A stretch of 64,000 nucleotides of DNA from a virus (Duplodnaviria; Heunggongvirae; Uroviricota; Caudoviricetes): the IMG/VR virus record IMGVR_UViG_2737471844_000002, positions 10,565 to 74,564 of that record. The stretch is one strand, 5' to 3'. A program made the position numbers and the translations under genes. Under the pieces are notes generated by a model, which was not told the DNA's origin, ran no database searches, and saw only the letters and a program-made list of their open reading frames with translations. Each line of letters opens with the position of its first letter. The first letter of the stretch is position 1. This document shows, one piece after another, positions 3,061 to 64,000 of the stretch.

Positions 3061-3323
3061 TGAGTGAATTAAAGTGTCGAATTAATGGCAATCAGATAGA
3101 ACCGTGTGCGGTACTGGCAAAAGCACTCGAATATGGAAATCCAGCCTTTAAGAGTAAAGGCATATTTATCCCGGAACGCGTGAATATAAACACCGGCGAG
3201 CCAGGCTTAGACATTGCTCAAATTCACTCCGGCCAATATGTCGGTCGTGGTGTTGCCATGTGTTTTTGCCCGTTCTGTGGTGAAAGTCTGAAAACATGGA
3301 AAAAGGAGGCAACCAGTGAGTGA
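3061..3323 (+). CDS. hypothetical zinc-ribbon-like protein
   Basis: In-frame GTG at 3061 within track ORF 2997-3323; CPFCG motif near C-terminus; start uncertain. Confidence 0.3.
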
Positions 3324-3942
3324 AGTTAACTATCAGGCACTGCGTGAGGTGGCAGAGGCCGCGAAGGGGGATACGACGTGGCAGAACCTACAGGCTTTTC
3401 ATGCTGCGGCTACGCCGGAGGTTGTGCAGGCGTTGCTGGATGAAAACGAAAGACTGTGTCGAGATCTGATAGCTCGTAATGGTGAGATTGAAGGGCTTCG
3501 GGAGTGGGCAGAAGAACTGGAGGCACGGGAGGTGGCTTTGCCAGTAGCGTCATGCATTGTTGAAGATGGATGCATGTGTGTTGATGGGTTCAGTGAGTAT
3601 GTAGGTCACTCGCTGCCTGATGGAATGCATGAGCTTTATGCTGCCCCGCCAGCGCCCGTAGTGCCTGCATCACTGGAATCAGAGCCGGTGGCGTGGACTG
3701 ATGAAGAGGAACTGCGCGATGTCAAGCAGTATGGTCTCGGTGAGATATTTCAGTACCCGCCAGATAAATACGCAGACTCGCGTCGTGTAATCCCGCTGTA
3801 TCGCGAGCTGCCAGTGCCGGTAGTGCCGGATGAAATGTATTGGCAGGATGCGCCAGTTGAAGGCAGCAGCAAAGCTGCTGCATACGCTACAGGTTGGAAC
3901 GCTTGCCGCGCTGCCATGTTTAAAGGAAAAGGAGGTGCGTAA
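3316..3942 (+). CDS. hypothetical phage protein
   Basis: 208-aa ORF overlapping upstream stop; no recognisable domain. Confidence 0.4.
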   Translation: MSEVNYQALREVAEAAKGDTTWQNLQAFHAAATPEVVQALLDENERLCRDLIARNGEIEGLREWAEELEAREVALPVASCIVEDGCMCVDGFSEYVGHSLPDGMHELYAAPPAPVVPASLESEPVAWTDEEELRDVKQYGLGEIFQYPPDKYADSRRVIPLYRELPVPVVPDEMYWQDAPVEGSSKAAAYATGWNACRAAMFKGKGGA

Positions 3943-5609: not shown

Positions 5610-6077
5610 ATGCAGACCTTCAGTGAAACAGATCTTCGCGATGCACAGGCACTGCTACCCGATTCCGTGCAGCAACTGATTAGCGTGATTGGCTTCCCCG
5701 CCCTGACCCGGTTAATCCGTTCTTTTGGTGGCGTGACGTTAAGCGGTAAAACCGGCGCACACGCCGAACGCACCGGCGGTGTCCATGCCCTGTTACATGA
5801 CGTGCTGACCGAAGACGAAATCAACAAACTGATCCGCTTTCTTGGCGGTGCGCCGTTTTATATTCCCCGTTGCGATCATGCGTTACGTGCCCTGCGTAAC
5901 TCCCGTTTTATGGCTGATTTACAGCAACATATAAAAGGCGGATGCTCACACCGGCAGGCGCTGGCACTGCTTTGTCCACGTTACGGAATTTCAGACCGGT
6001 ACGCATGGCAACTGATACACCGACGACAAAAACAGACTTCGCTGAAAAGCCCCACCCAGGTGGGGCTTTTTGATTAA
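5610..6077 (+). CDS. Mor/C-family transcriptional activator
   Basis: 155-aa ORF; product resembles the Mu Mor / C late-activator family with a C-terminal HTH-like region (from memory). Confidence 0.55.
   Translation: MQTFSETDLRDAQALLPDSVQQLISVIGFPALTRLIRSFGGVTLSGKTGAHAERTGGVHALLHDVLTEDEINKLIRFLGGAPFYIPRCDHALRALRNSRFMADLQQHIKGGCSHRQALALLCPRYGISDRYAWQLIHRRQKQTSLKSPTQVGLFD
6048..6072 (+). terminator. rho-independent terminator overlapping the mor-like stop
   Basis: agccccacc cagg tggggct hairpin followed by ttttt; overlaps the last codons of the ORF. Confidence 0.45.
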
Positions 6078-6102
6078 TGGGCCTCAGAAAAAGGAGACAC
6101 TT

Positions 6103-6381
6103 ATGACCAACTATACGGCCCTTGCCGAGTATACGGCCTACTCAGAGCAGGCCCGGGATGCTGCCGGACGCCGCTTCGCTTATATGAAAAATCTGTCCAG
6201 CCAGCTAAACCGAATGGCCGAACAACCGGATATGATTGTTCATGAAGAAGCGTTGCAGTGTGCCATTGCTGATATTATCGCCAGTGAAAACGAGATGCGA
6301 GCCGCTCTGGAAAAAGCAAACGCCTCTGCTCCGCTTTGCAATAAACCTCTTATTACGCCGGATTCCCTTTCCCGCTTCTGA
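6103..6381 (+). CDS. hypothetical protein
   Basis: ATG 6103 (MTNYTALAEY...) within track ORF 6070-6381; no recognisable domain. Confidence 0.3.
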   Translation: MTNYTALAEYTAYSEQARDAAGRRFAYMKNLSSQLNRMAEQPDMIVHEEALQCAIADIIASENEMRAALEKANASAPLCNKPLITPDSLSRF

Positions 6382-6403
6382 TTTATCACCCCGCCACGGT
6401 GGG

Positions 6404-6427
6404 GTGCTGAACTCCCCCAGCAGTACC
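6404..6427 (+). promoter_or_regulatory. conserved late-operon element, copy 1 (upstream of lysis genes)
   Basis: gtgctgaactcccccagcagtacc; shares the GTGCTGAACWCCCYC core with copies at 14500 and 26443; preceded by the dyad ccccgccacggtgggg. Confidence 0.45.
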
Positions 6428-6500
6428 TGCCACTCCATACCGCCTATCCTGTCCACTCAGTCTGTAAAACACGCAGGGATAACACTCACAGGAGAATTTC

Positions 6501-6893
6501 ATGTCTGAACCCATTTCAGGCAGCGGCGCGGTGGCACTGACCATTGGCGGTGCCGGTGTGTACGGCCTTATCACCAATACCGATTTCGGTGTGGTCGTGG
6601 GCGCATTTGCCGGGGCGCTGTTTGTGGTCACCCAGCAAAAAGAAATCCCGGTCTGGCGCATGATTATCCACCTGATTATCGCGTTTGTGGTCGGCGTTCT
6701 GGGGGCCGGTGTGGCGGCGTCACTGATGCAGTGGCTGACCCACTACAACGACAAACCCCTCGACGCGTTATGTGCGGTCGGTGTCTCGGCGCTCTCAATC
6801 AAGATTCTGACGTTTATTTATAAACAGGATATTTCATCGCTGTTTGGCCTGTTTTCACGGCTGCGCGGCGGAGGGGGTGAAAATGGTAAGTAG
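6501..6893 (+). CDS. holin-like membrane protein
   Basis: 130-aa ORF with several hydrophobic helices, immediately upstream of the endolysin. Confidence 0.4.
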   Translation: MSEPISGSGAVALTIGGAGVYGLITNTDFGVVVGAFAGALFVVTQQKEIPVWRMIIHLIIAFVVGVLGAGVAASLMQWLTHYNDKPLDALCAVGVSALSIKILTFIYKQDISSLFGLFSRLRGGGGENGK

Positions 6894-7179
6894 CGTTGCC
6901 GGCATTGTTAACGTCTGGCTGTGTGTCGCCATTGTGTTCGGGTTGTTCGTGTACCGCCGTAAAGGGGCTGTTCATAAACCTGCGGTCACCTGGGCGGCGT
7001 ACTGGCTGATGCTCTGGTACGCCATCATCCCGTTCCGCTGGTTGTTTGGTACGTACACCCACTCCAGCTGGCTGGTTGTGGCGCTTAATCTGGTGTTCTG
7101 TGCGCTCATCGTGTGGGCGCACGGGAATTTGTCGAAAATCCTTTCGTTACTGAGGCATCCACATGAAATCAAAAGATGA
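6883..7179 (+). CDS. membrane protein (holin/antiholin candidate)
   Basis: ATG 6883 preceded by ggagggggtga SD; about three predicted TM segments; overlaps the endolysin start. Confidence 0.35.
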   Translation: MVSSVAGIVNVWLCVAIVFGLFVYRRKGAVHKPAVTWAAYWLMLWYAIIPFRWLFGTYTHSSWLVVALNLVFCALIVWAHGNLSKILSLLRHPHEIKR

Positions 7180-7708
7180 CATTTTTGATGAAGTCCTGGG
7201 CAAAGAAGGCGGTTACGTCAATCACCCGGATGATAAGGGCGGCCCGACCAAATGGGGCATTACGGAAAAAGTCGCCCGCGCCCACGGATACCGTGGCGAT
7301 ATGCGTGAGTTAACCCGCGAACAGGCGCTGGATATCCTTGAAGCCGATTACTGGTATGGCCCGCGATTTGACCAGGTCGCCGCATTATCCCCTGATATTG
7401 CCGCAGAGCTGTGTGATACCGGTGTGAATATGGGGCCAACCGTGGCGTCCAGAATGCTTCAGCGCTGGCTGAACGTTTTCAACCTGCGCGGCAGGCTGTA
7501 CCCGGATATGGATACAGACGGACGCATCGGACCTCGCACCATCAGTGCATTGCGCGCCTTCCTGAATAATCGCGGTCAGGACGGTGAGCGGGTGATGCTG
7601 ACGGCCCTGAACTGCACGCAGGGTGACCGCTATCTGGAACTGGCAGAGAAACGCGAGGCTAACGAATCGTTTGTTTATGGCTGGCTGAAGGAGCGCGTGG
7701 CGGTATGA
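7163..7708 (+). CDS. endolysin, GH108-like muramidase with peptidoglycan-binding domain
   Basis: N-terminal FDEVLGKEGGYVNHPDDKGGPTKWGIT matches the GH108 signature (EGGY..P.D.GG.T..GIT); C-terminal half resembles a PG-binding domain. Confidence 0.7.
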   Translation: MKSKDDIFDEVLGKEGGYVNHPDDKGGPTKWGITEKVARAHGYRGDMRELTREQALDILEADYWYGPRFDQVAALSPDIAAELCDTGVNMGPTVASRMLQRWLNVFNLRGRLYPDMDTDGRIGPRTISALRAFLNNRGQDGERVMLTALNCTQGDRYLELAEKREANESFVYGWLKERVAV

Positions 7709-7887
7709 CGCGTCAGCACTGGACACACAGAACGCCACGTAAAGCCGCGCGCTGTGTTCTGGCCCTGTTTCTGGTGATGTTGCTTCCGGTGGGATGCACA
7801 GACATTAACAGGGCGGGCCAGCTGTTTGACGCGGCGGCGCAGGTCTGCCGGATTGTTGATGGCATCCGGCAGTGTTCGCAGAACTGA
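7705..7887 (+). CDS. putative lipoprotein (spanin candidate)
   Basis: 60-aa ORF with signal-like N-terminus and LLPVGC near-lipobox; position directly after the endolysin. Confidence 0.3.
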   Translation: MTRQHWTHRTPRKAARCVLALFLVMLLPVGCTDINRAGQLFDAAAQVCRIVDGIRQCSQN

Positions 7888-7908
7888 TTTTTTTGAAGGT
7901 CTGACACA

Positions 7909-8115
7909 GTGAGCATTATCAGATTTACAGAATGCGCAGGTTCAGGGAGCACCAGCGCTGTCATGGTAGTCGCTGAACGCATCACCCATTTTTACCGTCA
8001 GTGTGGTGCATATGGTGGCACGATCATTGAGCTGGATACCGGGAAAAACGTGTATGTTCTTGAAAATCCCGACAAAGTTAAATGCCTGATTGAACAGGCT
8101 CAGAAGGTCACTTAA
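7909..8115 (+). CDS. hypothetical protein
   Basis: 68-aa ORF. Confidence 0.3.
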   Translation: MSIIRFTECAGSGSTSAVMVVAERITHFYRQCGAYGGTIIELDTGKNVYVLENPDKVKCLIEQAQKVT

Positions 8116-8615
8116 TGGCGTGGTCACAGGATATCAGGGACAAAGTCCGTAACGGGTACATCTTTGACCAGCTTCCGCTGGATATCGTCGCCATGAAGTA
8201 CGCCGTGCCGCACGACACCGCGCGGCGCTGGAAAACGCAGGCGATGAAGAACGGCGATGACTGGGACAAGCTGCGGGCCGCGCACGCGCTCGCCGGTGAC
8301 GGGCTGGAAAGTGTCGCCCGCACCGTGCTTATCAGTCTGGTGGTGAAGTGTCAGACGACGCTTGAACGGCTGAACCAGAACCCGGACATCCCGCCGCAGG
8401 AGTCCGTCGAACTGCTGGCGAGTCTGTCTGACAGCCTCAGTAAGGCGGTGGCCAGCAGTAAAAAAATCCTGCCGGAAACCGACCGGCTCGCCACGGCACT
8501 GGAAGTGGTGCAGCGGCTCGGCGCGTTCATCAGGGACCGTCACCCGGCGCAGTATGCCCCGTTTCTTGAGGTGCTCGAAAGCTTCGCTAAAGAGCTTGAG
8601 GATAATTTCAGTTAA
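8115..8615 (+). CDS. Mu gp27-like small terminase subunit (DUF1804-like)
   Basis: 166-aa ORF just upstream of the large terminase; N-terminal region resembles Mu-like gp27 proteins (from memory). Confidence 0.5.
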   Translation: MAWSQDIRDKVRNGYIFDQLPLDIVAMKYAVPHDTARRWKTQAMKNGDDWDKLRAAHALAGDGLESVARTVLISLVVKCQTTLERLNQNPDIPPQESVELLASLSDSLSKAVASSKKILPETDRLATALEVVQRLGAFIRDRHPAQYAPFLEVLESFAKELEDNFS

Positions 8616-8661
8616 CCACAGCGGCCCGGTTTTCCGGGCCGTCTGATATTCGGGATTTGTA

Positions 8662-9402
8662 ATGCAAAAACAGATTATTGGTAACGCAACGTTGTATTGC
8701 GGTGATGTTCTTGATGTGCTGCCGGCGTTATCTGAACGTTTTGATGCCGTCATTACCGACCCGCCTTACAGCAGTGGTGGCACACACAAATCAGACCGCA
8801 GTATGGCCCCTTCGGACAAGTATGTCGGTCACACCCACTATGCCGAGTTCAGCGGGGATAACCGCGACCAGCGCAGCTGGGCATACTGGAGCACCCTGTG
8901 GATGTCCGGGGCTGCCCGCCTTGTGCGCCCCGGTGGTTATTTCATGGTGTTCAGTGACTGGCGACAGCTTCCCACCATGACCGACGTTTTTCAGGCCGGT
9001 GGTGTGCTGTGGCGTGGTCTGGTTGTCTGGGATAAAACGCAGGCTTCCCGTGCGCCACACACTGGCTATTTCCGGCATCAGGCCGAGTATGTGGTCTGGG
9101 GCAGCAACGGAAAACTCGACAAATGCCCGCACGGTGGCCCGTTCCCGGGTGTGATTACGCAGCGTGTTGTCCCGTCCGCAAAACTGCACATGACCGCAAA
9201 GCCGGTTCAGCTGATGGCCGAGCTGGTTAAACCGCTGGCACCGGATGCGCACGTTCTCGATCCGTTTATGGGAAGTGGCACCACCGCCATCCCTGTACTT
9301 GCCCGTGGCGGACGGTTTACCGGCATTGAAATGACTAACCAGTATTTTGATATCGCCTGCGCACGTATCGAAAAAGCGCAGGCAGAAGCAGCGCAGGTGT
9401 GA
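8662..9402 (+). CDS. DNA methyltransferase (amino-MTase, DPPY motif)
   Basis: 246-aa ORF with catalytic DPPYS motif preceding the AdoMet-binding DPFMGSGTT motif (beta-class order); sits between the small and large terminase genes. Confidence 0.75.
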   Translation: MQKQIIGNATLYCGDVLDVLPALSERFDAVITDPPYSSGGTHKSDRSMAPSDKYVGHTHYAEFSGDNRDQRSWAYWSTLWMSGAARLVRPGGYFMVFSDWRQLPTMTDVFQAGGVLWRGLVVWDKTQASRAPHTGYFRHQAEYVVWGSNGKLDKCPHGGPFPGVITQRVVPSAKLHMTAKPVQLMAELVKPLAPDAHVLDPFMGSGTTAIPVLARGGRFTGIEMTNQYFDIACARIEKAQAEAAQV

Positions 9403-9403
9403 C

Positions 9404-11044
9404 GTGGCAAAACGTAAACTTTCCATTAAAGAGTTTCAGAGAAGCCTGCAGGAGTACATCGCCAACCTCCGCCAGACCATCGAGGCTGAATGTCTGGGGT
9501 TCGATGTTAACCCGCAGGCCACACAGGCCCGCCGGGCGGCAGTCTGCGACCCGGTGACGGGCTACGATTATTTTGTCGAAAACTATTTTCCGCACTATGT
9601 CCGCAACCCGGCAAAAAGTGAGCTGCATAAATACCTGTTCAGCCGTCTGCCACAGGTTGTGGCAAGCCCGGACCCGGAGAACGACGCCATCGCCGCGCCC
9701 CGTGGTGAAGCAAAATCCACGCTGGTGACGCAGCTGTTTACCCTGTGGAACATTATCCGGGCCATTAAGCATTACCCGGTCATCATTATGGACAGTATCG
9801 ACCAGGCTTATCCGATGCTGGAAGCCATTAAGGCTGAACTGGAATTTAACCCCCGTTTAAAAAACGATTTCCCGGAAGTGTGCGGACAGGGCCGTGTCTG
9901 GCGTATGGGGACCATCGTCACGGCCAACAATATCAAGGTAACCGTTGCCGGTAGTGGTAAAAAACTGCGTGGTCTGCGCCACGGCCCGTACCGTCCTGAC
10001 CTGGTCATCCTCGACGACATCGAGAACGACGAGATGGTGCGTAACCCGGAGCAGCGCGACAAGCTGCATGACTGGCTCACCAGAACCGTGATGCCGCTGG
10101 GCGAGGCTGGCGGTAAAACCGATATTATTTATATCGGAACCATCCTGCATTACGACTCCGTGCTGTCGCGCACACTCAATAACCCGATGTGGAAAACGGC
10201 CCGCTTTAAGGCGGTCATTCAGTGGCCTGCCAACATGAAGCTGTGGGACGAGTGGGAAGAACTCATCCGCAACAAACAGCCAGAAGCGGCGGAGGCACTT
10301 TATCAGCAGAACGAAGCCGACATGCTCGCCGGGTCGGTGGTGTCATGGGCGGCGCGCCCACTGCTGGCGCTGATGAAAATCCGTGTCCGTGACGGTCACG
10401 ACACCTTTGATTCTGAATACCAGAACGACCCGGTCAGCGGTGAAGATGCGCTGTTTGCGGGCTGCATTAAGTTCTGGGTTAACCGTCTTGATGAATGGGT
10501 GTTTTATGGTGCTGTTGACCCCAGTCTCGGGAAGAAGAATAAAAACCGCGACCCGTCGGCCATTCTCGTGGGGGGCTTTAACCGTTTTACCGGCATTCTG
10601 GATGTGGTTGAAGCCGATATCCGCCGACGTCTGCCAAACAAACTTATCGAAGACGTGATTAAGTATCAGCGGGAATACCACTGTCTGTGCTGGTCGTTTG
10701 AGTCCGTCCAGTTTCAGGAGTTTCTGCGTACCGTGCTGGTTGAGCGTTCGGCGGCGCTGGGCGTGCCGGTTCCGGCGCTGCCGGTCATCCCGCTGGAGGA
10801 TAAGGCGCTGCGCATTGAGTCCCTTCAGCCGCATATGGCCAACGGCCTGATTCGTATCAGCCACACACATCAGACGCTGATTGACCAGCTGCGCCACTAC
10901 CCCAAAGCCGACCACGATGATGGCCCGGACTGTCTGCACATGCTGTGGACGCTGGCGGTATCGCGCAGCGCAAAATTTCAGATTCACACCCCACGCAGCA
11001 CCGGGCGTGACCGTGGCGGGCGTTTTGGTTCAGGAGGATGGTAA
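9404..11044 (+). CDS. terminase large subunit (Mu gp28-like)
   Basis: Large ORF; GTG 9404 chosen because it follows the MTase stop (the track ATG at 9347 overlaps the MTase); Mu-type terminase sequence character. Confidence 0.8.
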   Translation: MAKRKLSIKEFQRSLQEYIANLRQTIEAECLGFDVNPQATQARRAAVCDPVTGYDYFVENYFPHYVRNPAKSELHKYLFSRLPQVVASPDPENDAIAAPRGEAKSTLVTQLFTLWNIIRAIKHYPVIIMDSIDQAYPMLEAIKAELEFNPRLKNDFPEVCGQGRVWRMGTIVTANNIKVTVAGSGKKLRGLRHGPYRPDLVILDDIENDEMVRNPEQRDKLHDWLTRTVMPLGEAGGKTDIIYIGTILHYDSVLSRTLNNPMWKTARFKAVIQWPANMKLWDEWEELIRNKQPEAAEALYQQNEADMLAGSVVSWAARPLLALMKIRVRDGHDTFDSEYQNDPVSGEDALFAGCIKFWVNRLDEWVFYGAVDPSLGKKNKNRDPSAILVGGFNRFTGILDVVEADIRRRLPNKLIEDVIKYQREYHCLCWSFESVQFQEFLRTVLVERSAALGVPVPALPVIPLEDKALRIESLQPHMANGLIRISHTHQTLIDQLRHYPKADHDDGPDCLHMLWTLAVSRSAKFQIHTPRSTGRDRGGRFGSGGW

Positions 11045-32142: not shown

Positions 32143-32183
32143 AAATAGTCCAGAAAAAATCGCGAAGTTACACACGCGGCGCG

Positions 32184-34803: not shown

Positions 34804-35763
34804 ATGAAAATTTGTATCGACGACGGCTCCACCAACATCAAGCTGGCATGGACTGAAAACGGCGAACGCCGCAACGCCATCAGCCCGAACAGCTTCAAGT
34901 CGGAATGGTCTGCGCCGTTCGGTGGCTCGCAGCCTGCGAACTACATGCTTGATGGCGTGCGCTATGGTTTTGATCCGGTCAGCGATCGCTTTGTCCAGAC
35001 GACCGACACGCAATACCAGTACAGCGATGTGAATGTCATTGCCATTCATCACGCGCTGGTCAAATCAGGCATCACGCCACAGGAAGTGGATGTTGTTGTC
35101 ACCCTGCCACTGAGCGAATATTTCGACACTAACGCCCAGCCGGACATGGCCAACATCAACCGCAAAAAAGCGAACGTTATGCGCCCGGTGGAGTACCAGA
35201 ACGGTGAGGCATTCACTATCCGTAACGTGCGGGTTATGCCTGAATCCATTCCGGCTGGCTTTAAGGCACTGGCTGACATGAGTCCGTTTGAATCCCTGCT
35301 GATTGTGGATTTGGGCGGAACCACGCTGGATGTGGCAAAGGTTCAGGGGCAACTGGCAGGTATCAGCCAGGTGTTTTGCGATCCACACGTAGGCGTTTCT
35401 CTGATGGCCGATGCCGTACTGTCGGTGATGGCCACTAACGGTATGCGCACCAGTCACCACATAGCCAATACCATTATCGAACATCGCCATGATGAAGCCT
35501 GGCTGCGCCAGCACATCCACAATGACGCGCATTACGCCAGCCTGATGGCGGTTATTCGTGAAAAGGAAGAAACACTGAAACAACGTGTTATCCGCGCGCT
35601 GGCGGTTTTTTCGGGTTACGGGCGGGTGATGGTTGTCGGTGGAGGGGCGGAGATTGTGGCACCCGCTATCCGCGAAGCCTGCGGAGTTAATGCGACTTTC
35701 ATCGCGGACGGGGTGCCACAGTTTGCTCTGGTTAATGGGCTGTACGCAATGGACAAGGAGTAA
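34804..35763 (+). CDS. parM: ParM/StbA actin-like segregation ATPase
   Basis: 319-aa ORF; strong resemblance to plasmid R1 ParM (MKICIDDGSTNIKL, YSDVNVIAIHHAL, LLIVDLGGTTLD). Confidence 0.8.
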   Translation: MKICIDDGSTNIKLAWTENGERRNAISPNSFKSEWSAPFGGSQPANYMLDGVRYGFDPVSDRFVQTTDTQYQYSDVNVIAIHHALVKSGITPQEVDVVVTLPLSEYFDTNAQPDMANINRKKANVMRPVEYQNGEAFTIRNVRVMPESIPAGFKALADMSPFESLLIVDLGGTTLDVAKVQGQLAGISQVFCDPHVGVSLMADAVLSVMATNGMRTSHHIANTIIEHRHDEAWLRQHIHNDAHYASLMAVIREKEETLKQRVIRALAVFSGYGRVMVVGGGAEIVAPAIREACGVNATFIADGVPQFALVNGLYAMDKE

Positions 35764-35767
35764 ACCA

Positions 35768-36079
35768 ATGACGACTCCAACCAGACGGATAAGTTTCTAT
35801 CTGAAGCCCACCGCCGTCAAGAACGAAGGAGAAGCATGCGCCTGGCTGGACAGCCTTACACCAGAAGCCCGCAAAAGCGGCCAACGCGTGGCTTTTCTGG
35901 CCGGGCTGGCACTTCTGAAAATGAATCCGGCAGAGGCTTACCGACTGGCTGCATGGGCTGATGATGAGGTGTTATCAGTGACACAAACCAAGACAGAACG
36001 CCCCGCGTCACAGCCAGTATCAACCGCACAGATAACCAGTCAGATGGCCGGAAATATCCGGGCGTTATTTCCTGAATAA
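35768..36079 (+). CDS. parR: ParR/StbB-like partition adaptor
   Basis: ATG 35768 five nt after the parM stop; 103-aa product with N-terminal RISFYLKP...LDSLTPEARKSGQ pattern resembling R1 ParR. Confidence 0.5.
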   Translation: MTTPTRRISFYLKPTAVKNEGEACAWLDSLTPEARKSGQRVAFLAGLALLKMNPAEAYRLAAWADDEVLSVTQTKTERPASQPVSTAQITSQMAGNIRALFPE

Positions 36080-36457: not shown

Positions 36458-37540
36458 ATGGTAAACGTGAGGGAGGATGAACTTTTCAAACTCATCGAGC
36501 AAGGCATCAAAGGCAACGCAAATGCATTTACACTCCTATGCAGAAAGATGATTAACAACATCCGTAAAAATGATGAGGCTTTAGCTTCTAAGCTGGCTTC
36601 GTTAGTTGCTGAGGGAACAGTATTACGTGGGGCATCTAGTAAGGCTCCTATGCCTGTGGATGGAGACTCCAGACGAAACCTTTTGCAGGAAACATCTGTC
36701 AACGCAATTGTTGAAGAACCTGTATGGAATACGGATATCTCAAAGAAGCTGGAGTCAATTGTTAACGAAAGAGAGAATGCGGTTTCTTTGTTCAAAGCTG
36801 GTCTTGAACCTGTGAAGACGGTTTTACTTTCTGGCCCGCCAGGCGTAGGCAAAACAATGTCCGCACATTGGCTTGCTGCAAAGTTAAATTTACCTCTTTT
36901 AACATTGGATCTCTCATCTGTAATGAGTTCTCTTTTGGGAAAAACAGGTAATAATATTAAATCCGTTATGGATTATGCCAAAGAGAAACCATGTGTCCTT
37001 TTGCTTGATGAATTTGATGCTGTTGCAAAAAGACGTGATGATGACAGGGACGTTGGAGAATTAAAACGTTTAGTTACTGTACTCCTACAGACCATAGATG
37101 AGTGGCCAGCGACCTCGCTTCTTGTTGCTGCGACTAATCACCCTGATATCTTAGATCCGGCTGTTTGGCGTCGATTTGAGCACATCCTTAAATTTAATAT
37201 GCCATCAGTAGAACTGATAGATAGATATTTAGTCAATCATAATATTGAACCTGAACTATCTAAAAAACTTGCACCATTATTAGATGGCATGTCCTTTGCC
37301 ATCATTAACCGTATTTTGAATTTCTCCAAAAAGAATGAGGTACTTAGAAATATTCCATTTGAAAGCTCATTAATAGAAGCCGTAATTACGGAGAGGGTTT
37401 CATTGGATGAGTTTAGCGATAATGATCTCAATATAATTAAATATCATTTTGACGGTTTTTCAAATAGGAAGATAGCTGAATTAGTTGGTGTTTCACATCC
37501 AACAATCGCGAATAAATTACAAAAGTGGGGGATTAAATGA
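36458..37540 (+). CDS. AAA+ ATPase with C-terminal HTH domain
   Basis: 360-aa ORF; Walker A GPPGVGKT, Walker B LLLDEFD, sensor/Arg-finger region ATNHPDILDPAVWRRFE; C-terminal GFSNRKIAELVGVSHPTIANKLQKWG helix-turn-helix; AT-rich. Confidence 0.8.
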   Translation: MVNVREDELFKLIEQGIKGNANAFTLLCRKMINNIRKNDEALASKLASLVAEGTVLRGASSKAPMPVDGDSRRNLLQETSVNAIVEEPVWNTDISKKLESIVNERENAVSLFKAGLEPVKTVLLSGPPGVGKTMSAHWLAAKLNLPLLTLDLSSVMSSLLGKTGNNIKSVMDYAKEKPCVLLLDEFDAVAKRRDDDRDVGELKRLVTVLLQTIDEWPATSLLVAATNHPDILDPAVWRRFEHILKFNMPSVELIDRYLVNHNIEPELSKKLAPLLDGMSFAIINRILNFSKKNEVLRNIPFESSLIEAVITERVSLDEFSDNDLNIIKYHFDGFSNRKIAELVGVSHPTIANKLQKWGIK

Positions 37541-39741
37541 TGGAAAGGAACTTACTTTTAGGTAACGGTCATGTTCTGACAAAAAAGGAACCTTTGCCTA
37601 AAGGAAGGGATGGTAAGCGCTATCCCTATACTCTTGAAGAAGTAAGGGAGCATTTAAACCCAGAGATTGATACTTTACTCTCACGCTTTCGCAGTTTGGA
37701 TGATGCGGCTAAGCCAAGGGGGGAGAGTGTATTCAATTTAACTTTACACCCAGCGTTTTTGGGTAAAAGCTACTTTCCGGAAGGATTGCTTAGAGCGACA
37801 GGTTTACGGGATGTCGGTAGCCGTCAGGTAATCATTCGCCCACGGAAAGCGGCACGTCAGTGCGATCAGAATAAGGACTTAGTAACGGCGCAACTGTTTG
37901 TTAGCGGTGATGATGATGCCGTTATAAGATTTAAGGAAATTTTAAATTCCCCTACAGCTCCGAAGGGCGTACAAAAGGATTTGATCGAAATTGAAAGTGT
38001 TAGCTTTTTTGAAGGAAAAGAGAGAGCACGCAATTTTGAGCATGCGAAAAGTGATTTGATAAAATTTGAAGTGGTTCTTCATGCTGGGGTTGAAGACGAT
38101 GATATCGTTAAAGCCTATATTAGCTATGCGGCACAATATGATGTCTCTGTTGATTACAAAAGTAGAATCCAAGTTGGTGGGCTGACTTTCATCGTTGCAC
38201 ACGCGCGACCTGAAGATATGAAAAAAACACTCGATTTTTCATTAATCCGCGTTGTGCGGCCGATGCCGTCTCTCAGGTGTACTCAGCCGAACATTGTCAG
38301 AAAGTTATCTAATATAGTTACACCGGAGCTCCCTAATTCTAAAGCTGTTCTTGAATCCGAACGTATTGCCATTTTTGATGGTGGCTTGGGGACAGCTGAC
38401 TTGAGTAATTGGGTTACGGAATACGTGTATCCAGACACCAAAGAAACAAGCGGATTATTATTGCAGCACGGTAATGAAGTGACATCCACTTTCTTATTCG
38501 GACGTGTCGAGGAAAATGCACCTTCTTTTAAAAGACCGTTTATGAATGTAGATCATTATAGAGTTCTTTCACCGACATCAGGTGACAATGGCAATTGGGA
38601 TTTATTTGATGTCCTTAAGAAAATACAGTCCGTTCTTGATAGTGGTGACTATAAGTTCGCTAATCTAAGTATTGGTCCTCATCTTCCAATTGGTGATGAT
38701 GAGGTTCATGTATGGACTGCTGTTTTAGACCAAATCTGTGCTAAGCATGGGATATTACTTACTGTTGCTGTTGGGAATGATGGCAATGAGGACGGTGATG
38801 CAGCGAGAATACAACCTCCTTCCGATATGGTAAACGCGCTAGCGATTGGTGCTGCTGATCGTAGCGGTGAAAAATGGGGGCGGGCACCATATAGCTGTAT
38901 TGGGCCAGGCAGAAGCCCCGGATTCGTTAAACCTGATGGTGTTATTTTTGGTGGAAGCGACGACGAGCCTTTTTACACTTACAACCCTCTGCTTGGTTCT
39001 ATAGTTGGAGTTCAAGGAACCAGTTATGCCTCTCCATTAGCATTGAGAACGGCCGCTGGAGTTGCGGCTCTATCAGGAACTCCATTGAACACCATTGCAT
39101 TGAAAGCGTTGCTTGTTCATCATGCTGAAACATCAAGAAAATATTCGCGTGAACATATCGGTTGGGGACGGTTTAGTGAGGATCCTAACGTTTTAATCGA
39201 TTGTCCAAATGATACTGCTACAGTAATTTACTATGGTTCATTAGCAAAAAATAAATATTTAAGGGCACCGATCCCATTCCCTGATGTTCCCTTTGACGAA
39301 GCATTTGAGCTTACCGCTACTTTATGCATTCAAACCCCAGTAGATCCTGAACATTCAGTAAACTATACAAGGGCCGGTATGCAGGTAACTTTCCGCCCAA
39401 GATTCGGCCTTGACGATACCGATACAGATGATTTCTTTGGTCAAAAAAGCCAGTATAAGACTGAAAGGGAGTGTAGGAGTGAAGGTCATAAATGGGAAAC
39501 TTGTTTGCACAGAAGCAAAAAGTTCAGTGCTGATACATTATTAAGCGATCCAGTTTTTGATATACGGTATCATGCCCGAGATTCTTCGCGCCATGTTAAG
39601 GGAGTTTCAGCCCCTGATATGCAATATGCGATGGTAATAAGCGTAAGGGTAAAAGACTTTGATTTATATAATGTTATTCGCCAGCGATATACAATTCTGA
39701 ATCCTATTCAACTGCGCACACAAATTTCTCTCGACACGTAA
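37537..39741 (+). CDS. S8 subtilisin-like serine protease with N- and C-terminal extensions
   Basis: 734-aa ORF with ATGA overlap to the ATPase gene; catalytic triad motifs IAIFDGGLG (Asp codon 38377-38379), LQHGNEV (His codon 38467-38469), GTSYASP (Ser codon 39022-39024) in canonical D-H-S order and spacing. Confidence 0.8.
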   Translation: MMERNLLLGNGHVLTKKEPLPKGRDGKRYPYTLEEVREHLNPEIDTLLSRFRSLDDAAKPRGESVFNLTLHPAFLGKSYFPEGLLRATGLRDVGSRQVIIRPRKAARQCDQNKDLVTAQLFVSGDDDAVIRFKEILNSPTAPKGVQKDLIEIESVSFFEGKERARNFEHAKSDLIKFEVVLHAGVEDDDIVKAYISYAAQYDVSVDYKSRIQVGGLTFIVAHARPEDMKKTLDFSLIRVVRPMPSLRCTQPNIVRKLSNIVTPELPNSKAVLESERIAIFDGGLGTADLSNWVTEYVYPDTKETSGLLLQHGNEVTSTFLFGRVEENAPSFKRPFMNVDHYRVLSPTSGDNGNWDLFDVLKKIQSVLDSGDYKFANLSIGPHLPIGDDEVHVWTAVLDQICAKHGILLTVAVGNDGNEDGDAARIQPPSDMVNALAIGAADRSGEKWGRAPYSCIGPGRSPGFVKPDGVIFGGSDDEPFYTYNPLLGSIVGVQGTSYASPLALRTAAGVAALSGTPLNTIALKALLVHHAETSRKYSREHIGWGRFSEDPNVLIDCPNDTATVIYYGSLAKNKYLRAPIPFPDVPFDEAFELTATLCIQTPVDPEHSVNYTRAGMQVTFRPRFGLDDTDTDDFFGQKSQYKTERECRSEGHKWETCLHRSKKFSADTLLSDPVFDIRYHARDSSRHVKGVSAPDMQYAMVISVRVKDFDLYNVIRQRYTILNPIQLRTQISLDT

Positions 39742-45156: not shown

Positions 45157-45957
45157 ATGATTACTCCTGCACAGCAACACTGGCAGAACGTGATGGCACA
45201 GCGCGCAGGCCGGGCGAATGAAGGCGTGGACCACGCCGCGCGTACCGCGCATGAAGAGGTGCTGTATCGTCTGCGTCTGGCACAGGCCCGGCTTAAGGGC
45301 GTACAGGCCAGAAGCGCCAAAGCCGCCATCAAAAAAGAGTTGTTGCCGGACTTTTCCGGCTGGATTGAGGGAACACTGGAGGCTGACGGCGGGCAGCAGG
45401 ATGAAGTGATTGCCACGCTGATGGTGTGGGCGATTGACTGCGGCGATCTTCCGCTGGCGCTGCGTATTGGTGCATATGTGGTCCGTCACAACCTCATCAT
45501 GCCGGATAACTTTGGACGTACTGCTGCTACGGTACTGACCGAAGAAATCTGCAACCCGGTACTGACGCAGGCCGGGACGGATGCCGACGCGGATTTGTCC
45601 GCCTTTATCGAACCACTGGATACCCTCCGGGAGATTGTCGCCGACCAGGACATGCCGGACGAAGTGCGCGCCAAATTATGCAAGGCGTGCGCCTTTGCCC
45701 GCCGTGGCCTGACCGATGCGGACAGCATGGCCTCATCACTGAAGCTGCTGCGCGAAGCGATGCACCTGAACCCGAACGCAGGTGTGAAACGCGAGATTGC
45801 AACCCTTTCCCGCGCTCTGAAAAAAGCCGATTCCGCAGCCGCACCAGAAGATGCCAGCACACCGCAGGCGCAGGACGAAAGCAGCAAAAGTAAAAAGACA
45901 ACGCGGAAGCCTGCAACACGAAAAACCACCGCGACGCAGAAGGCGAAGCGCGGTTAA
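45157..45957 (+). CDS. M: terminase endonuclease (small) subunit gpM
   Basis: 266-aa ORF; shares MPDEVRAKL... and AGVK.EI... blocks with P2 gpM. Confidence 0.75.
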   Translation: MITPAQQHWQNVMAQRAGRANEGVDHAARTAHEEVLYRLRLAQARLKGVQARSAKAAIKKELLPDFSGWIEGTLEADGGQQDEVIATLMVWAIDCGDLPLALRIGAYVVRHNLIMPDNFGRTAATVLTEEICNPVLTQAGTDADADLSAFIEPLDTLREIVADQDMPDEVRAKLCKACAFARRGLTDADSMASSLKLLREAMHLNPNAGVKREIATLSRALKKADSAAAPEDASTPQAQDESSKSKKTTRKPATRKTTATQKAKRG

Positions 45958-62593: not shown

Positions 62594-63259
62594 ATGAATA
62601 TGCAAATTTTTATCGCACCAGCAGCCACAGTTGCTGCAGTCTGCCTTGCTGCATATTTTGCTTTACGAAATGAACGTAAAAAGAAAGCACTTGAGATTAG
62701 AACAACTCAACTAGATCGAATATCAGAGCTAGTAAACCGAGCATCTACCAATTTGATGCAATATACAGGTACTCTTGCCTCTATACTGGAAGCGCACGCC
62801 AAAGATAATTATCTACCGAACAAAAAATTTGACATTAATGTAATTAGCAAATGGAAAGATTGCCTCGATGAGAGTGAGGTCTGGGCGATTGATAGACAGC
62901 AACTAAGAACATGTCAGCACAGTCTGGAGTTTCATCGTGAAAAAGAATGGGCTGAATGGAAAAAAATAATTCCACCATTACTTGATAAAATTGACCAATT
63001 TTTTCTCATATCTAAGCCAGGGCAACCTGTTACGTTTATAAATGGCCAAAACAAAACAGCTGATGAACTACTTGTTTTCTCAAGATATTTGAGAAAACAA
63101 ACAGCAGAAATTGAATCAGTACGTCAGCTGTTACTTTCTCAAATGAGAGAGGAATTCATCGAGTTAACTAGCTTTGAACCTGTCACAATGTTTAGCTTAT
63201 TTAAATCAATAAAGAAAAATGTCATGCAATTTTTCTGTATCAGTGCTCTTAAAAATTGA
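62594..63259 (+). CDS. membrane-anchored protein of unknown function (moron between D and ogr)
   Basis: 221-aa ORF; single N-terminal TM helix (IFIAPAATVAAVCLAAYFAL); strongly AT-rich; own terminator downstream. Confidence 0.5.
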   Translation: MNMQIFIAPAATVAAVCLAAYFALRNERKKKALEIRTTQLDRISELVNRASTNLMQYTGTLASILEAHAKDNYLPNKKFDINVISKWKDCLDESEVWAIDRQQLRTCQHSLEFHREKEWAEWKKIIPPLLDKIDQFFLISKPGQPVTFINGQNKTADELLVFSRYLRKQTAEIESVRQLLLSQMREEFIELTSFEPVTMFSLFKSIKKNVMQFFCISALKN

Positions 63260-63297: not shown

Positions 63298-63408
63298 ATT
63301 CTTGCTAAGAGACCTTTCTACGGCATCAGTAAACAAAACGAACTATCAGTTGGAGTCTGAGCAAGTTCAGCCTAAACTAGCGACAGCACTACGTTAAGGG
63401 AGGTCGCT

Positions 63409-63669
63409 ATGTTCCGTTGTCCGCTTTGTGGCGCATCTGCCCGTATCCGCACCAGTCGTCCGGAAAATGATTCAAACACCGTGCGGCAAAAGTATTACCA
63501 GTGTAACAACCTGGAATGCGGCGTATGCTTCTCAACACTGGAAGCTTTCCATAAATTCACATCGAAACACGCCTCCGGCATCCACTCTTCAGAAGATATC
63601 CCGTGGCATGAGCTGCCAGCTTCACACAGGGGAAACAATCAGATGAGCTTGCCTTTACCTCAGAATTAA
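63409..63669 (+). CDS. ogr: Ogr/Delta-family zinc-finger late transcription activator
   Basis: 86-aa ORF starting MFRCPLCG...RTSR...YYQCNNLECG; matches the Ogr C-x2-C ... C-x4-C zinc finger. Confidence 0.75.
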   Translation: MFRCPLCGASARIRTSRPENDSNTVRQKYYQCNNLECGVCFSTLEAFHKFTSKHASGIHSSEDIPWHELPASHRGNNQMSLPLPQN

Positions 63670-63859
63670 CAGGCAGAATTGCCGGAGTAACAAAAAAGCG
63701 ATAGATTACGCGCGGGTGCCTTTCGGCTGATGGTCGGAGGGAATACCCGAAGGCCAGATGTGGAAAGGCCCCGGAAAACATCTCTGTTTAACCGAGGCCC
63801 TAACCGCATTACCTTGACAAGTGAAAGGTTAGCGCCTCTCCGGAAAAGGAGCAAGTGCT

Positions 63860-64000
63860 ATGTCGCAAAAATCGCTTACGGCCATCACGTTCTGCGTGAC
63901 GGCAATCCTCATCATCTGGATGTTGCACGGTTCGCTGTGTGAAATACGGATGAGCTTCTGGGGAGCGGAGTTTGCGGCGTTCTTACAGTGTAAGCAGTAA
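63860..64000 (+). CDS. Hok/Gef-family type I toxin-like small membrane protein
   Basis: 46-codon ORF (below the ORF-track cutoff) with aaaaggag SD; hydrophobic helix then SLCEIR...EFAAFLQCKQ, resembling the Hok family (cf. HokA SLCELH...ELAAFLACK); overlapped by track ORF 63730-63942 in another frame (mok-like). Confidence 0.5.
   Translation: MSQKSLTAITFCVTAILIIWMLHGSLCEIRMSFWGAEFAAFLQCKQ

Follow-up and report, generated by a model that had tools for sequence, protein, structure and literature searches.

The right end of the window, by which we mean the whole 64,000-nucleotide stretch of viral DNA analysed here (positions 10,565 to 74,564 of IMG/VR record IMGVR_UViG_2737471844_000002), very probably carries an intact hok/sok-type type I toxin-antitoxin locus, which is cargo of a P88-like (P2-family) prophage and lies between its ogr gene and attR. 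Its toxin belongs to the 46-residue Hok type designated 'cluster 72' in the Hok catalogue preprint (Escalera-Maurer et al., 2026; bioRxiv 10.1101/2025.08.07.668861). The features of the locus, in window coordinates, are as follows.

63409-63669, plus strand: ogr, late-gene activator (Pfam Ogr_Delta, 52.4 bits), the conserved upstream neighbour of hok.
63679-63707, plus strand: predicted hok promoter, read from the sequence; -35 TTGCCG (63679-63684), 17-nt spacer, -10 TAGATT (63702-63707).
63714-64000, plus strand: hok mRNA, predicted +1 at 63714 (GGGUGCC...), continuing for about 122 nt (fbi, terminator) beyond the window.
63714-63726, plus strand: tac-like 5' element, predicted to pair with the fbi-like AAGGCACCC, which lies outside the window (positions 6758-6766 of L001, a locus from E. 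coli TUM9757).
63730-63942, plus strand: 70-codon ORF ('mok-like') with an ATG start, overlapping hok in another frame.
63818-63757, minus strand: predicted Sok-like RNA, comprising a 5' tail of about 19 nt, a long hairpin GGGCCUCGG...CCGGGGCCU and UUU; the 3' end is approximate.
63826-63854, minus strand: predicted Sok promoter; -35 TTGCTC (63854-63849), 17-nt spacer, -10 TAACCT (63831-63826), +1 G at 63818.
63846-63851, plus strand: hok Shine-Dalgarno (SD) sequence AAGGAG, read from the sequence, 8 nt before the ATG and in a local hairpin with CUCUCC.
63860-64000, plus strand: hok coding sequence, ATG start, 46 amino acids and stop; peptide MSQKSLTAITFCVTAILIIWMLHGSLCEIRMSFWGAEFAAFLQCKQ.

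By homology, the 46-codon ORF is a Hok/Gef type I toxin gene, and the assignment lies far above chance. The ORF was found as the first-pass annotation had described it, with an ATG start, with the good SD claimed for it, and about 190 bp past ogr (ogr ends at 63669 and hok starts 190 nt later). The family assignment proposed there held when the alignment was run. Pfam HOK_GEF (PF01848) matched residues 7-44 with 29.9 bits (gathering score 22; E = 4.1e-7), and PHROG 251 matched with 80.6 bits. The seven residues reported to be more than 80% conserved in Hok proteins (M1, C16, T18, L30, C31, E32 and E41; Escalera-Maurer et al., 2026) all have counterparts in M1, C12, T14, L26, C27, E28 and E37 of the present peptide, as identified by alignment with HokB, HokC and R1 Hok, the last being the entry in Table S2 of the same preprint. 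Identity to HokC, HokB and R1 Hok was 24-30%, with the conserved Hok residues all retained, and the features of the family were present, namely a length of about 50 residues, an N-terminal basic residue, one hydrophobic helix, C..T, LCE and E. The NCBIfam models for the HokA and Hok subfamilies stayed under their cut-offs (34 bits where 89 is required, and 21.6 where 73 is), which makes this a separate subfamily within the Hok family. A search of 5.8 billion proteins returned 67 homologs; the source names shown for them were all Hok/Gef except one 'protein HokA', and the hosts of the named homologs were E. coli, Shigella, Salmonella and Klebsiella oxytoca. Among the relatives, variation in the hok frame followed codon position in the order 3 > 1 > 2. 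An N-terminal extension of Hok was rejected: in every relative, frame 0 closes 6-27 nt upstream. No second copy of hok was found within the window.

RefSeq has the identical protein as WP_000078916.1, under the name 'Hok/Gef family protein', and Table S2 of the preprint lists the identical peptide as 72_1621 (plasmid LRP137). With a RefSeq name and a catalogue entry already in existence, the toxin gene as such is a correct but ordinary finding and brings little gain to genome annotation. Toxicity on overexpression, which had earlier been named as a point on which the Hok assignment could fall, favours Hok by way of this identical peptide. According to the preprint, 42 of the 45 cloned Hok homologs were toxic, the non-toxic ones being 19_179, 60_1482 and 69_1540; 72_1621 is among the 45 and outside these three, and so is 72_1589, the version found in Stx phages, which was also cloned. 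The preprint reports that hok is enriched in prophages. It analysed coding sequences only and explicitly set aside Mok, Sok and mRNA structure (Escalera-Maurer et al., 2026). By our reading, its main text names neither P2-like phages nor Peduoviridae, and a search of the literature combining hok with P2-like, ogr or Peduoviridae gave nothing specific.

The hok stop codon forms the last letters of the window and the 3' UTR is absent from it; fbi and the terminator lie outside because the window stops there. Both are assumed for the window from genomes identical over its last 701 nt. The full-length RNA was read in L001 (6415-6823, 409 nt), which is 100% identical over the shared 701 nt (L001 6001-6701, window 63300-64000). 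As folded, the hok mRNA is about 410 nt long and closed by 5'-3' tac-fbi pairing. The full-length RNA had a predicted free energy of -177.8 kcal/mol (z = -8.1), and its first 13 nt paired with ...GGUCGAUAAGGCACCC about 340 nt downstream in the single-sequence fold; in L001, an intrinsic terminator follows fbi on the plus strand. For comparison, 20 distinct loci with Hok identity down to 48% were aligned, the diversity being drawn from phage, plasmid and encoding-contig records. RNAalifold recovered the long-range tac-fbi helix (columns 1-7 with 362-368, and 10-13 with 355-358), the eleven pairs of which were 98.6-98.7% paired across the 20 loci. In the second tac-fbi helix, compensatory double changes were seen at all four pairs in six of the 20 sequences; these six are Salmonella and Klebsiella sequences that have the changes in common, so they may reflect few evolutionary events. 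Over the consensus structure as a whole, 97.6% of cells were paired as compared to 36-44% in slid controls, double changes occurred at 19 covarying pairs, and the covariation seen was not attained in any shuffle.

The SD hairpin corresponds to consensus helices 9 and 10, which were 94-99% paired with G-C to G-U changes. Within the coding region, a conserved helix joins AUGUCGCAAA to UUUGCGGCGU and the start codon pairs with a downstream coding segment, while other conserved helices join the Sok-target region to the 3' UTR. When the RNA was folded after 3' truncation, the 5' element refolded locally without fbi and part of the Sok target was freed; the SD hairpin stayed closed in these folds and no activation structure emerged. 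The predicted hok promoter agrees with the consensus at 8 of 12 positions, where the scan threshold was 9 of 12, and a consensus sigma-70 promoter scan reported no site on either strand. In the aligned relatives its -10 takes the form TA[G/A/C]A[T/A]T at an equal distance from GGGTGCC. The proposed hok and Sok promoters rest on positional homology and conservation, not on the scan.

The Rfam sok model (RF01794), position 1 of which aligns to 63714, matched window positions 63714-63873 with 48.4 bits (E = 2.8e-9), below its gathering score of 59; two relatives scored 35.6 and 38.3 bits. Although named 'sok antitoxin', RF01794 matches the hok-encoding strand, opposite annotated sokC and sokB (L026 502-654, L027 567-718), and spans the whole leader up to the hok ATG. 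Since it matches the hok-sense strand on K-12 hokB and hokC, it models the hok leader and not Sok itself.

An antisense Sok-like unit is predicted at the same place as annotated sokB and sokC. A check for a Sok-like promoter on the opposite strand, as had been suggested, gave a divided result: a promoter-like element is present and positioned as in annotated sokB (TTGCCG-17-TAAGAT) and sokC, but in the window allele it agrees with the consensus at only 6 of 12 positions and went unreported by the promoter scan. Its -10, TAACCT, is nearly invariant in the relatives, and Stx-phage copies carry a stronger -35, TTGACT, at the equal place. The hairpin sequence GGCCUCGG...CGGGGCC and its layout match annotated SokB and SokC of K-12; the predicted 5' end lies about 42 nt before the hok ATG as compared to 48-49 nt for the annotated RNAs. 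The hairpin folded with -28.5 kcal/mol on the minus strand versus -23.7 kcal/mol on the plus strand. In 18-19 of the 20 loci, two stem positions are mismatched on the plus strand (A.C and C.A), whereas the minus-strand stem pairs at both positions in 19 of the 20, which argues that the hairpin is kept for an antisense RNA. The target of the Sok tail is the least conserved segment of the leader, with a pairwise identity of 0.64 as compared to 0.82-0.85 for the -10, SD and tac elements, and it differs among three tandem hok copies of Salmonella. This variability, together with the differences between tandem copies, fits a specificity determinant.

The locus was compared with hok/sok (parB) of plasmid R1. 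Both have a Hok-family toxin with an SLCEIR core and an mRNA closed by tac-fbi. The Sok-like RNA predicted here would share with R1 Sok an unpaired 5' tail followed by a GCCUCG...CGGGGC hairpin with a U.G wobble, and its predicted -10 and -35 elements lie in homologous position beside the hok SD. The numbering of the R1 leader and Sok sequence used for this comparison agrees with the positions of the R1 mok and hok ATG codons. The two systems differ in protein identity (30%) and length (52 residues in R1, 46 here), in the mok start, which is present in R1 and finds no conserved counterpart here, in the separate intrinsic terminator that follows fbi by about 20 nt here, and in being plasmid-borne and phage-borne, respectively. 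K-12 hokB/sokB and hokC/sokC have the geometry of the present locus, Sok hairpins very similar to the predicted one, and likewise a Sok -35 that abuts the hok SD. In contrast, they have annotated mokB and mokC 57-58 nt upstream, show 24% protein identity, and score 110-118 bits with RF01794 as compared to 36-48 bits for the 46-residue subfamily (gathering score 59). Another prophage-borne hok/sok is hokW-sokW of the Stx2 phage Sp5, a working prophage type I system that raises phage release (Takada et al. 2021, PMC8621323). It was considered as a characterised homolog and rejected, as the cloning primers encode a HokD-like toxin of 51 residues (MKQQKAM...), i.e. a different paralog (PMC8621323). 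The PHROG label 'MokW-like' on the 46-residue Hok is therefore a misnomer; the protein is a Hok toxin and not HokW. Two labels are thus corrected here, this one and the Rfam 'sok' name given to a model of the hok-mRNA sense strand.

By analogy with the R1 paradigm (PMC9841398), the locus would work as follows. The full-length hok mRNA would be stable and inert. Slow trimming from the 3' end would remove fbi, upon which the 5' end would refold locally. Short-lived Sok would pair with the leader at about 63757-63818, and RNase III would destroy the mRNA. Once Sok synthesis ends, Hok would be translated and the inner membrane would be depolarised (PMC9841398). Candidate roles for such a device in a prophage are addiction of the host to the element, defence by abortive infection, and help in lysis. 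Possibly the same molecular device serves mainly a phage function, either abortive infection when host transcription is shut off by a superinfecting phage or lysis help as in hokW-sokW, and not addiction. The hok/sok of R1 has been reported to defend against phage, hokW-sokW has been reported to increase the release of Sp5 (PMC8621323), and another cargo site of the hok-bearing prophage holds an IetAS defence pair. However, hok was not found to be enriched near defence systems (Escalera-Maurer et al., 2026), no PADLOC model matches Hok, and hokW is the HokD-like paralog described above.

Whether the locus also follows R1 in its use of mok was considered next to the overlapping frame. The ORF at 63730-63942, earlier taken to mirror the mok-hok arrangement, does exist, but it is not a conserved mok. 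Pfam and PHROG assign its product to no family. The mok-like frame has a stop 13-43 nt before the hok ATG and no ATG, GTG or TTG upstream in 20 of the 23 relatives compared. Even when near-cognate starts (CTG, ATT, ATC or ATA, 3-19 nt after the conserved GAGG) are allowed, an ORF extending to the hok SD is missing from 17 of 20 loci. In most relatives the stop is a TAA within CCTAAG or CTTAAG, with the Hok ORF and the RNA structure intact; the Chuche and P88 alleles are natural examples with a stop in this frame. Variation is lowest at what would be the third codon position of the mok frame, a pattern which fits the hok frame instead. The ORF thus looks like an accident of the window allele that is not conserved, and as a mok it is probably not functional; the 46-residue Hok subfamily appears to be without mok, which is a modest new point.

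It is unlikely, then, that the locus is of the canonical R1 type, in which TTG 63814 or ATG 63730 would be the start of a genuine mok in the overlapping frame, translation of that mok would be required to open the hok ribosome-binding site, and Sok would block mok initiation. In R1, the mok ATG occupies nt 116-118 and the hok ATG nt 174-176, and translation of mok is required, though only up to the hok SD. The window allele does keep the frame open from 63730 to 63942 with both starts in frame upstream of hok; its TTG lies 46 nt before the hok ATG, near the 57-58 nt offset at which annotated mokC and mokB of K-12 start, and the R1 mok SD has its counterpart in the conserved GAGG at 63794-63797. 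Yet the distance of 16 nt between GAGG and the TTG exceeds normal SD spacing, and the ATG at 63730, at 17 nt from the RNA end, is part of the 5' stem. In 17 of 20 relatives a start that reads through to the hok SD is missing, near-cognates included, and the frame lacks coding-type variation. Most likely, Sok would act in this subfamily without translational coupling, either through cleavage or decay of the duplex or by blocking an upstream ribosome-loading site. In tisB/istR-1, the antisense RNA binds well upstream of a structured ribosome-binding site and no leader ORF is involved (standby-site control). This is a possible analogy only, as toxin and RNA are unrelated.

Taken further, we tentatively propose that the 46-residue Hok subfamily is a naturally mok-less branch of hok/sok with Sok control that bypasses translational coupling, for instance via decay triggered by RNase III or via a blocked upstream ribosome-loading site; that it is now fixed beside ogr, at the right end of P2-family prophages in Escherichia and Salmonella, where three tandem copies that differ in their Sok-recognition sequences are sometimes present; and that together with the conserved parMR pair it would serve P88-like phages as a plasmid-style maintenance kit. 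A large, intact and widespread hok subfamily, seemingly without the mok that is essential in R1, would offer a natural test case for silencing by Sok.

Most chromosomal hok loci of E. coli K-12 are inactive relics, and we consider it very unlikely that the present locus is likewise one without present function. The P2-like prophage in the window is itself disrupted, the Sok promoter is weak by consensus, and some relatives have decayed, one carrying a stop in hok (L012) and another lacking the 5' leader (L020). On the other hand, all hok/sok elements are intact in the window locus, RNA pairs are maintained by compensatory change, the hok codon positions vary as in a coding sequence, and the identical peptide stands outside the three non-toxic of 45 tested homologs (Escalera-Maurer et al., 2026). 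The locus is also identical or nearly so in many genomes: five complete E. coli genomes match the 701 nt of ogr and hok at 100% identity, and ogr and hok are found together, with at least 80% of that length covered, in 1158 of 5426. A match is present in roughly 1,700 E. coli genomes. The last 25 kb of the window had no exact match among complete E. coli genomes, the best matches being 96-98% identical over 87-93%.

By gene order, the intact hok/sok locus is phage cargo just inside the right end of the prophage, between ogr and attR or int. The first-pass annotation had allowed for either cargo or a chromosomal hok locus marking the integration site; the former stands, on phage records and the K-12 empty site, and the latter does not. 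The comparison with an empty site that had been suggested for the right boundary was run on L001, where 262 nt follow the hok stop before K-12 btuC-ihfA intergenic sequence begins at the ihfA terminator. In phage Chuche, isolated from mud, the order is D-ogr-hok-com/methyltransferase-int. In the P88 record, the hok locus lies between D and the record end, about 0.75 kb before the integrase at the record start, and in phage 500465-2 other cargo comes after hok. Gene order in phage records and the empty-site comparison together thus indicate cargo with a conserved ogr adjacency. That hok is instead a chromosomal locus beside which the prophage integrated is extremely improbable and refuted by the empty-site comparison, for although no further gene stands between hok and the prophage end and chromosomal hok loci do exist in E. 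coli, the K-12 btuC-ihfA interval holds nothing that matches the hok locus, K-12 homology resumes 262 nt after the hok stop, and the ogr-hok unit occurs in phage records including Chuche and at different chromosomal sites in Salmonella.

The adjacency of ogr and hok was seen in 12 of 25 related loci, one of them with an ogr fragment on a plasmid, and in relatives from E. coli and Salmonella ogr lies directly upstream of hok even at an Ogr identity of 37-51%. The whole ogr-hok unit was present in P88-like and related Peduoviridae, including P88, P884B11, Chuche, PhiR44_2, 500465-2, 520873 and Shae_phiSM. Nearly all of the other approximately 190 matching phage records, almost all of them Stx or related phages, had the hok locus alone, at about 74-81% nucleotide identity and following lom. 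The locus was further found on 35 plasmid records, those examined being IncI1 and IncF conjugative plasmids. In Salmonella prophages, D and ogr were followed either by one hok beside ihfA (L022) or by three hok loci in tandem (L024, L025), with Ogr proteins that share just 37-51% identity with that of the window. An alignment search of a collection with one genome per species gave six loci, some in records titled Planococcaceae, Vagococcus and Xanthomonas; the loci in records titled with non-enteric genera are taken to be contamination. The tight linkage of ogr and hok identifies the interval from ogr to att as a further site at which P2-like phages carry cargo.

Several of these relatives deserve mention in their own right. 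In the Salmonella P2-like prophages L024 and L025 (2005-3141), the three tandem hok/sok loci follow ogr about 500 nt apart, and their Hok peptides are 63-73% identical to that of the window. A Stx-phage copy of the 46-residue hok locus lies directly after lom in 933W (45511-45800; L009 2020-2309), where the start of the next gene replaces the intrinsic terminator; the Stx-phage 46-residue hok was unannotated in the original 933W, VT2-Sakai and phage 86 records and is distinct from hokW-sokW. On the E. albertii IncF plasmid pEA5_1 (L012 1585-2276), a 23-codon ogr fragment stands just upstream of a divergent hok, which suggests that the module reached the plasmid with a piece of phage; the next hok copy on pEA5_1 has an in-frame stop and deletions. 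In L022, the Salmonella sRNA STnc540 (171.6 bits; 3295-3492, minus strand) was detected between the prophage-end hok and ihfA, and it appears to belong to the ihfA-proximal chromosomal flank of the corresponding integration site.

As to the rest of the window, positions 1-32172 resemble the structural half of another prophage, probably a Mu-like one. Its ORFs run from terminase- and portal-sized ones through a sheath-sized one to the tape measure, baseplate J and tail fibre genes and lastly a DUF4376 assembly protein. The right end of the Mu-like segment (...GAAGTTACA, near 32172) abuts the P88-like replication gene A. Homology to P88 begins at P88 position 6210, 253 nt inside gene A (5957-8779), indicating that the P2-like prophage with hok is interrupted and probably defective. 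Between tail gene D and ogr, an ORF of 221 residues with a hydrophobic N-terminus (62594-63259) was not matched significantly in Pfam, PHROG or PADLOC. L001 has it annotated as a hypothetical gene; P88 and Chuche lack it and have ogr directly after D. Just after gene A lies a parM/parR-like pair (34804-36079; StbA_N, ParM_N and Plasmid_stab_B). The parMR cassette ascribed earlier to the hok-bearing element was borne out, parM and parR being conserved in P88-like phages; the pair was found at 92-96% identity in P88, P884B11, Chuche, 520873, 503458 and Shae_phiSM. Its presence in these six P88-like phages makes it a standing feature of these integrating phages, alongside hok/sok. An AAA ATPase and a subtilase S8 at 36458-39741 match IetA and IetS with 297.8 and 138.4 bits, and this IetAS-like pair occupies a variable region between parMR and the portal gene.
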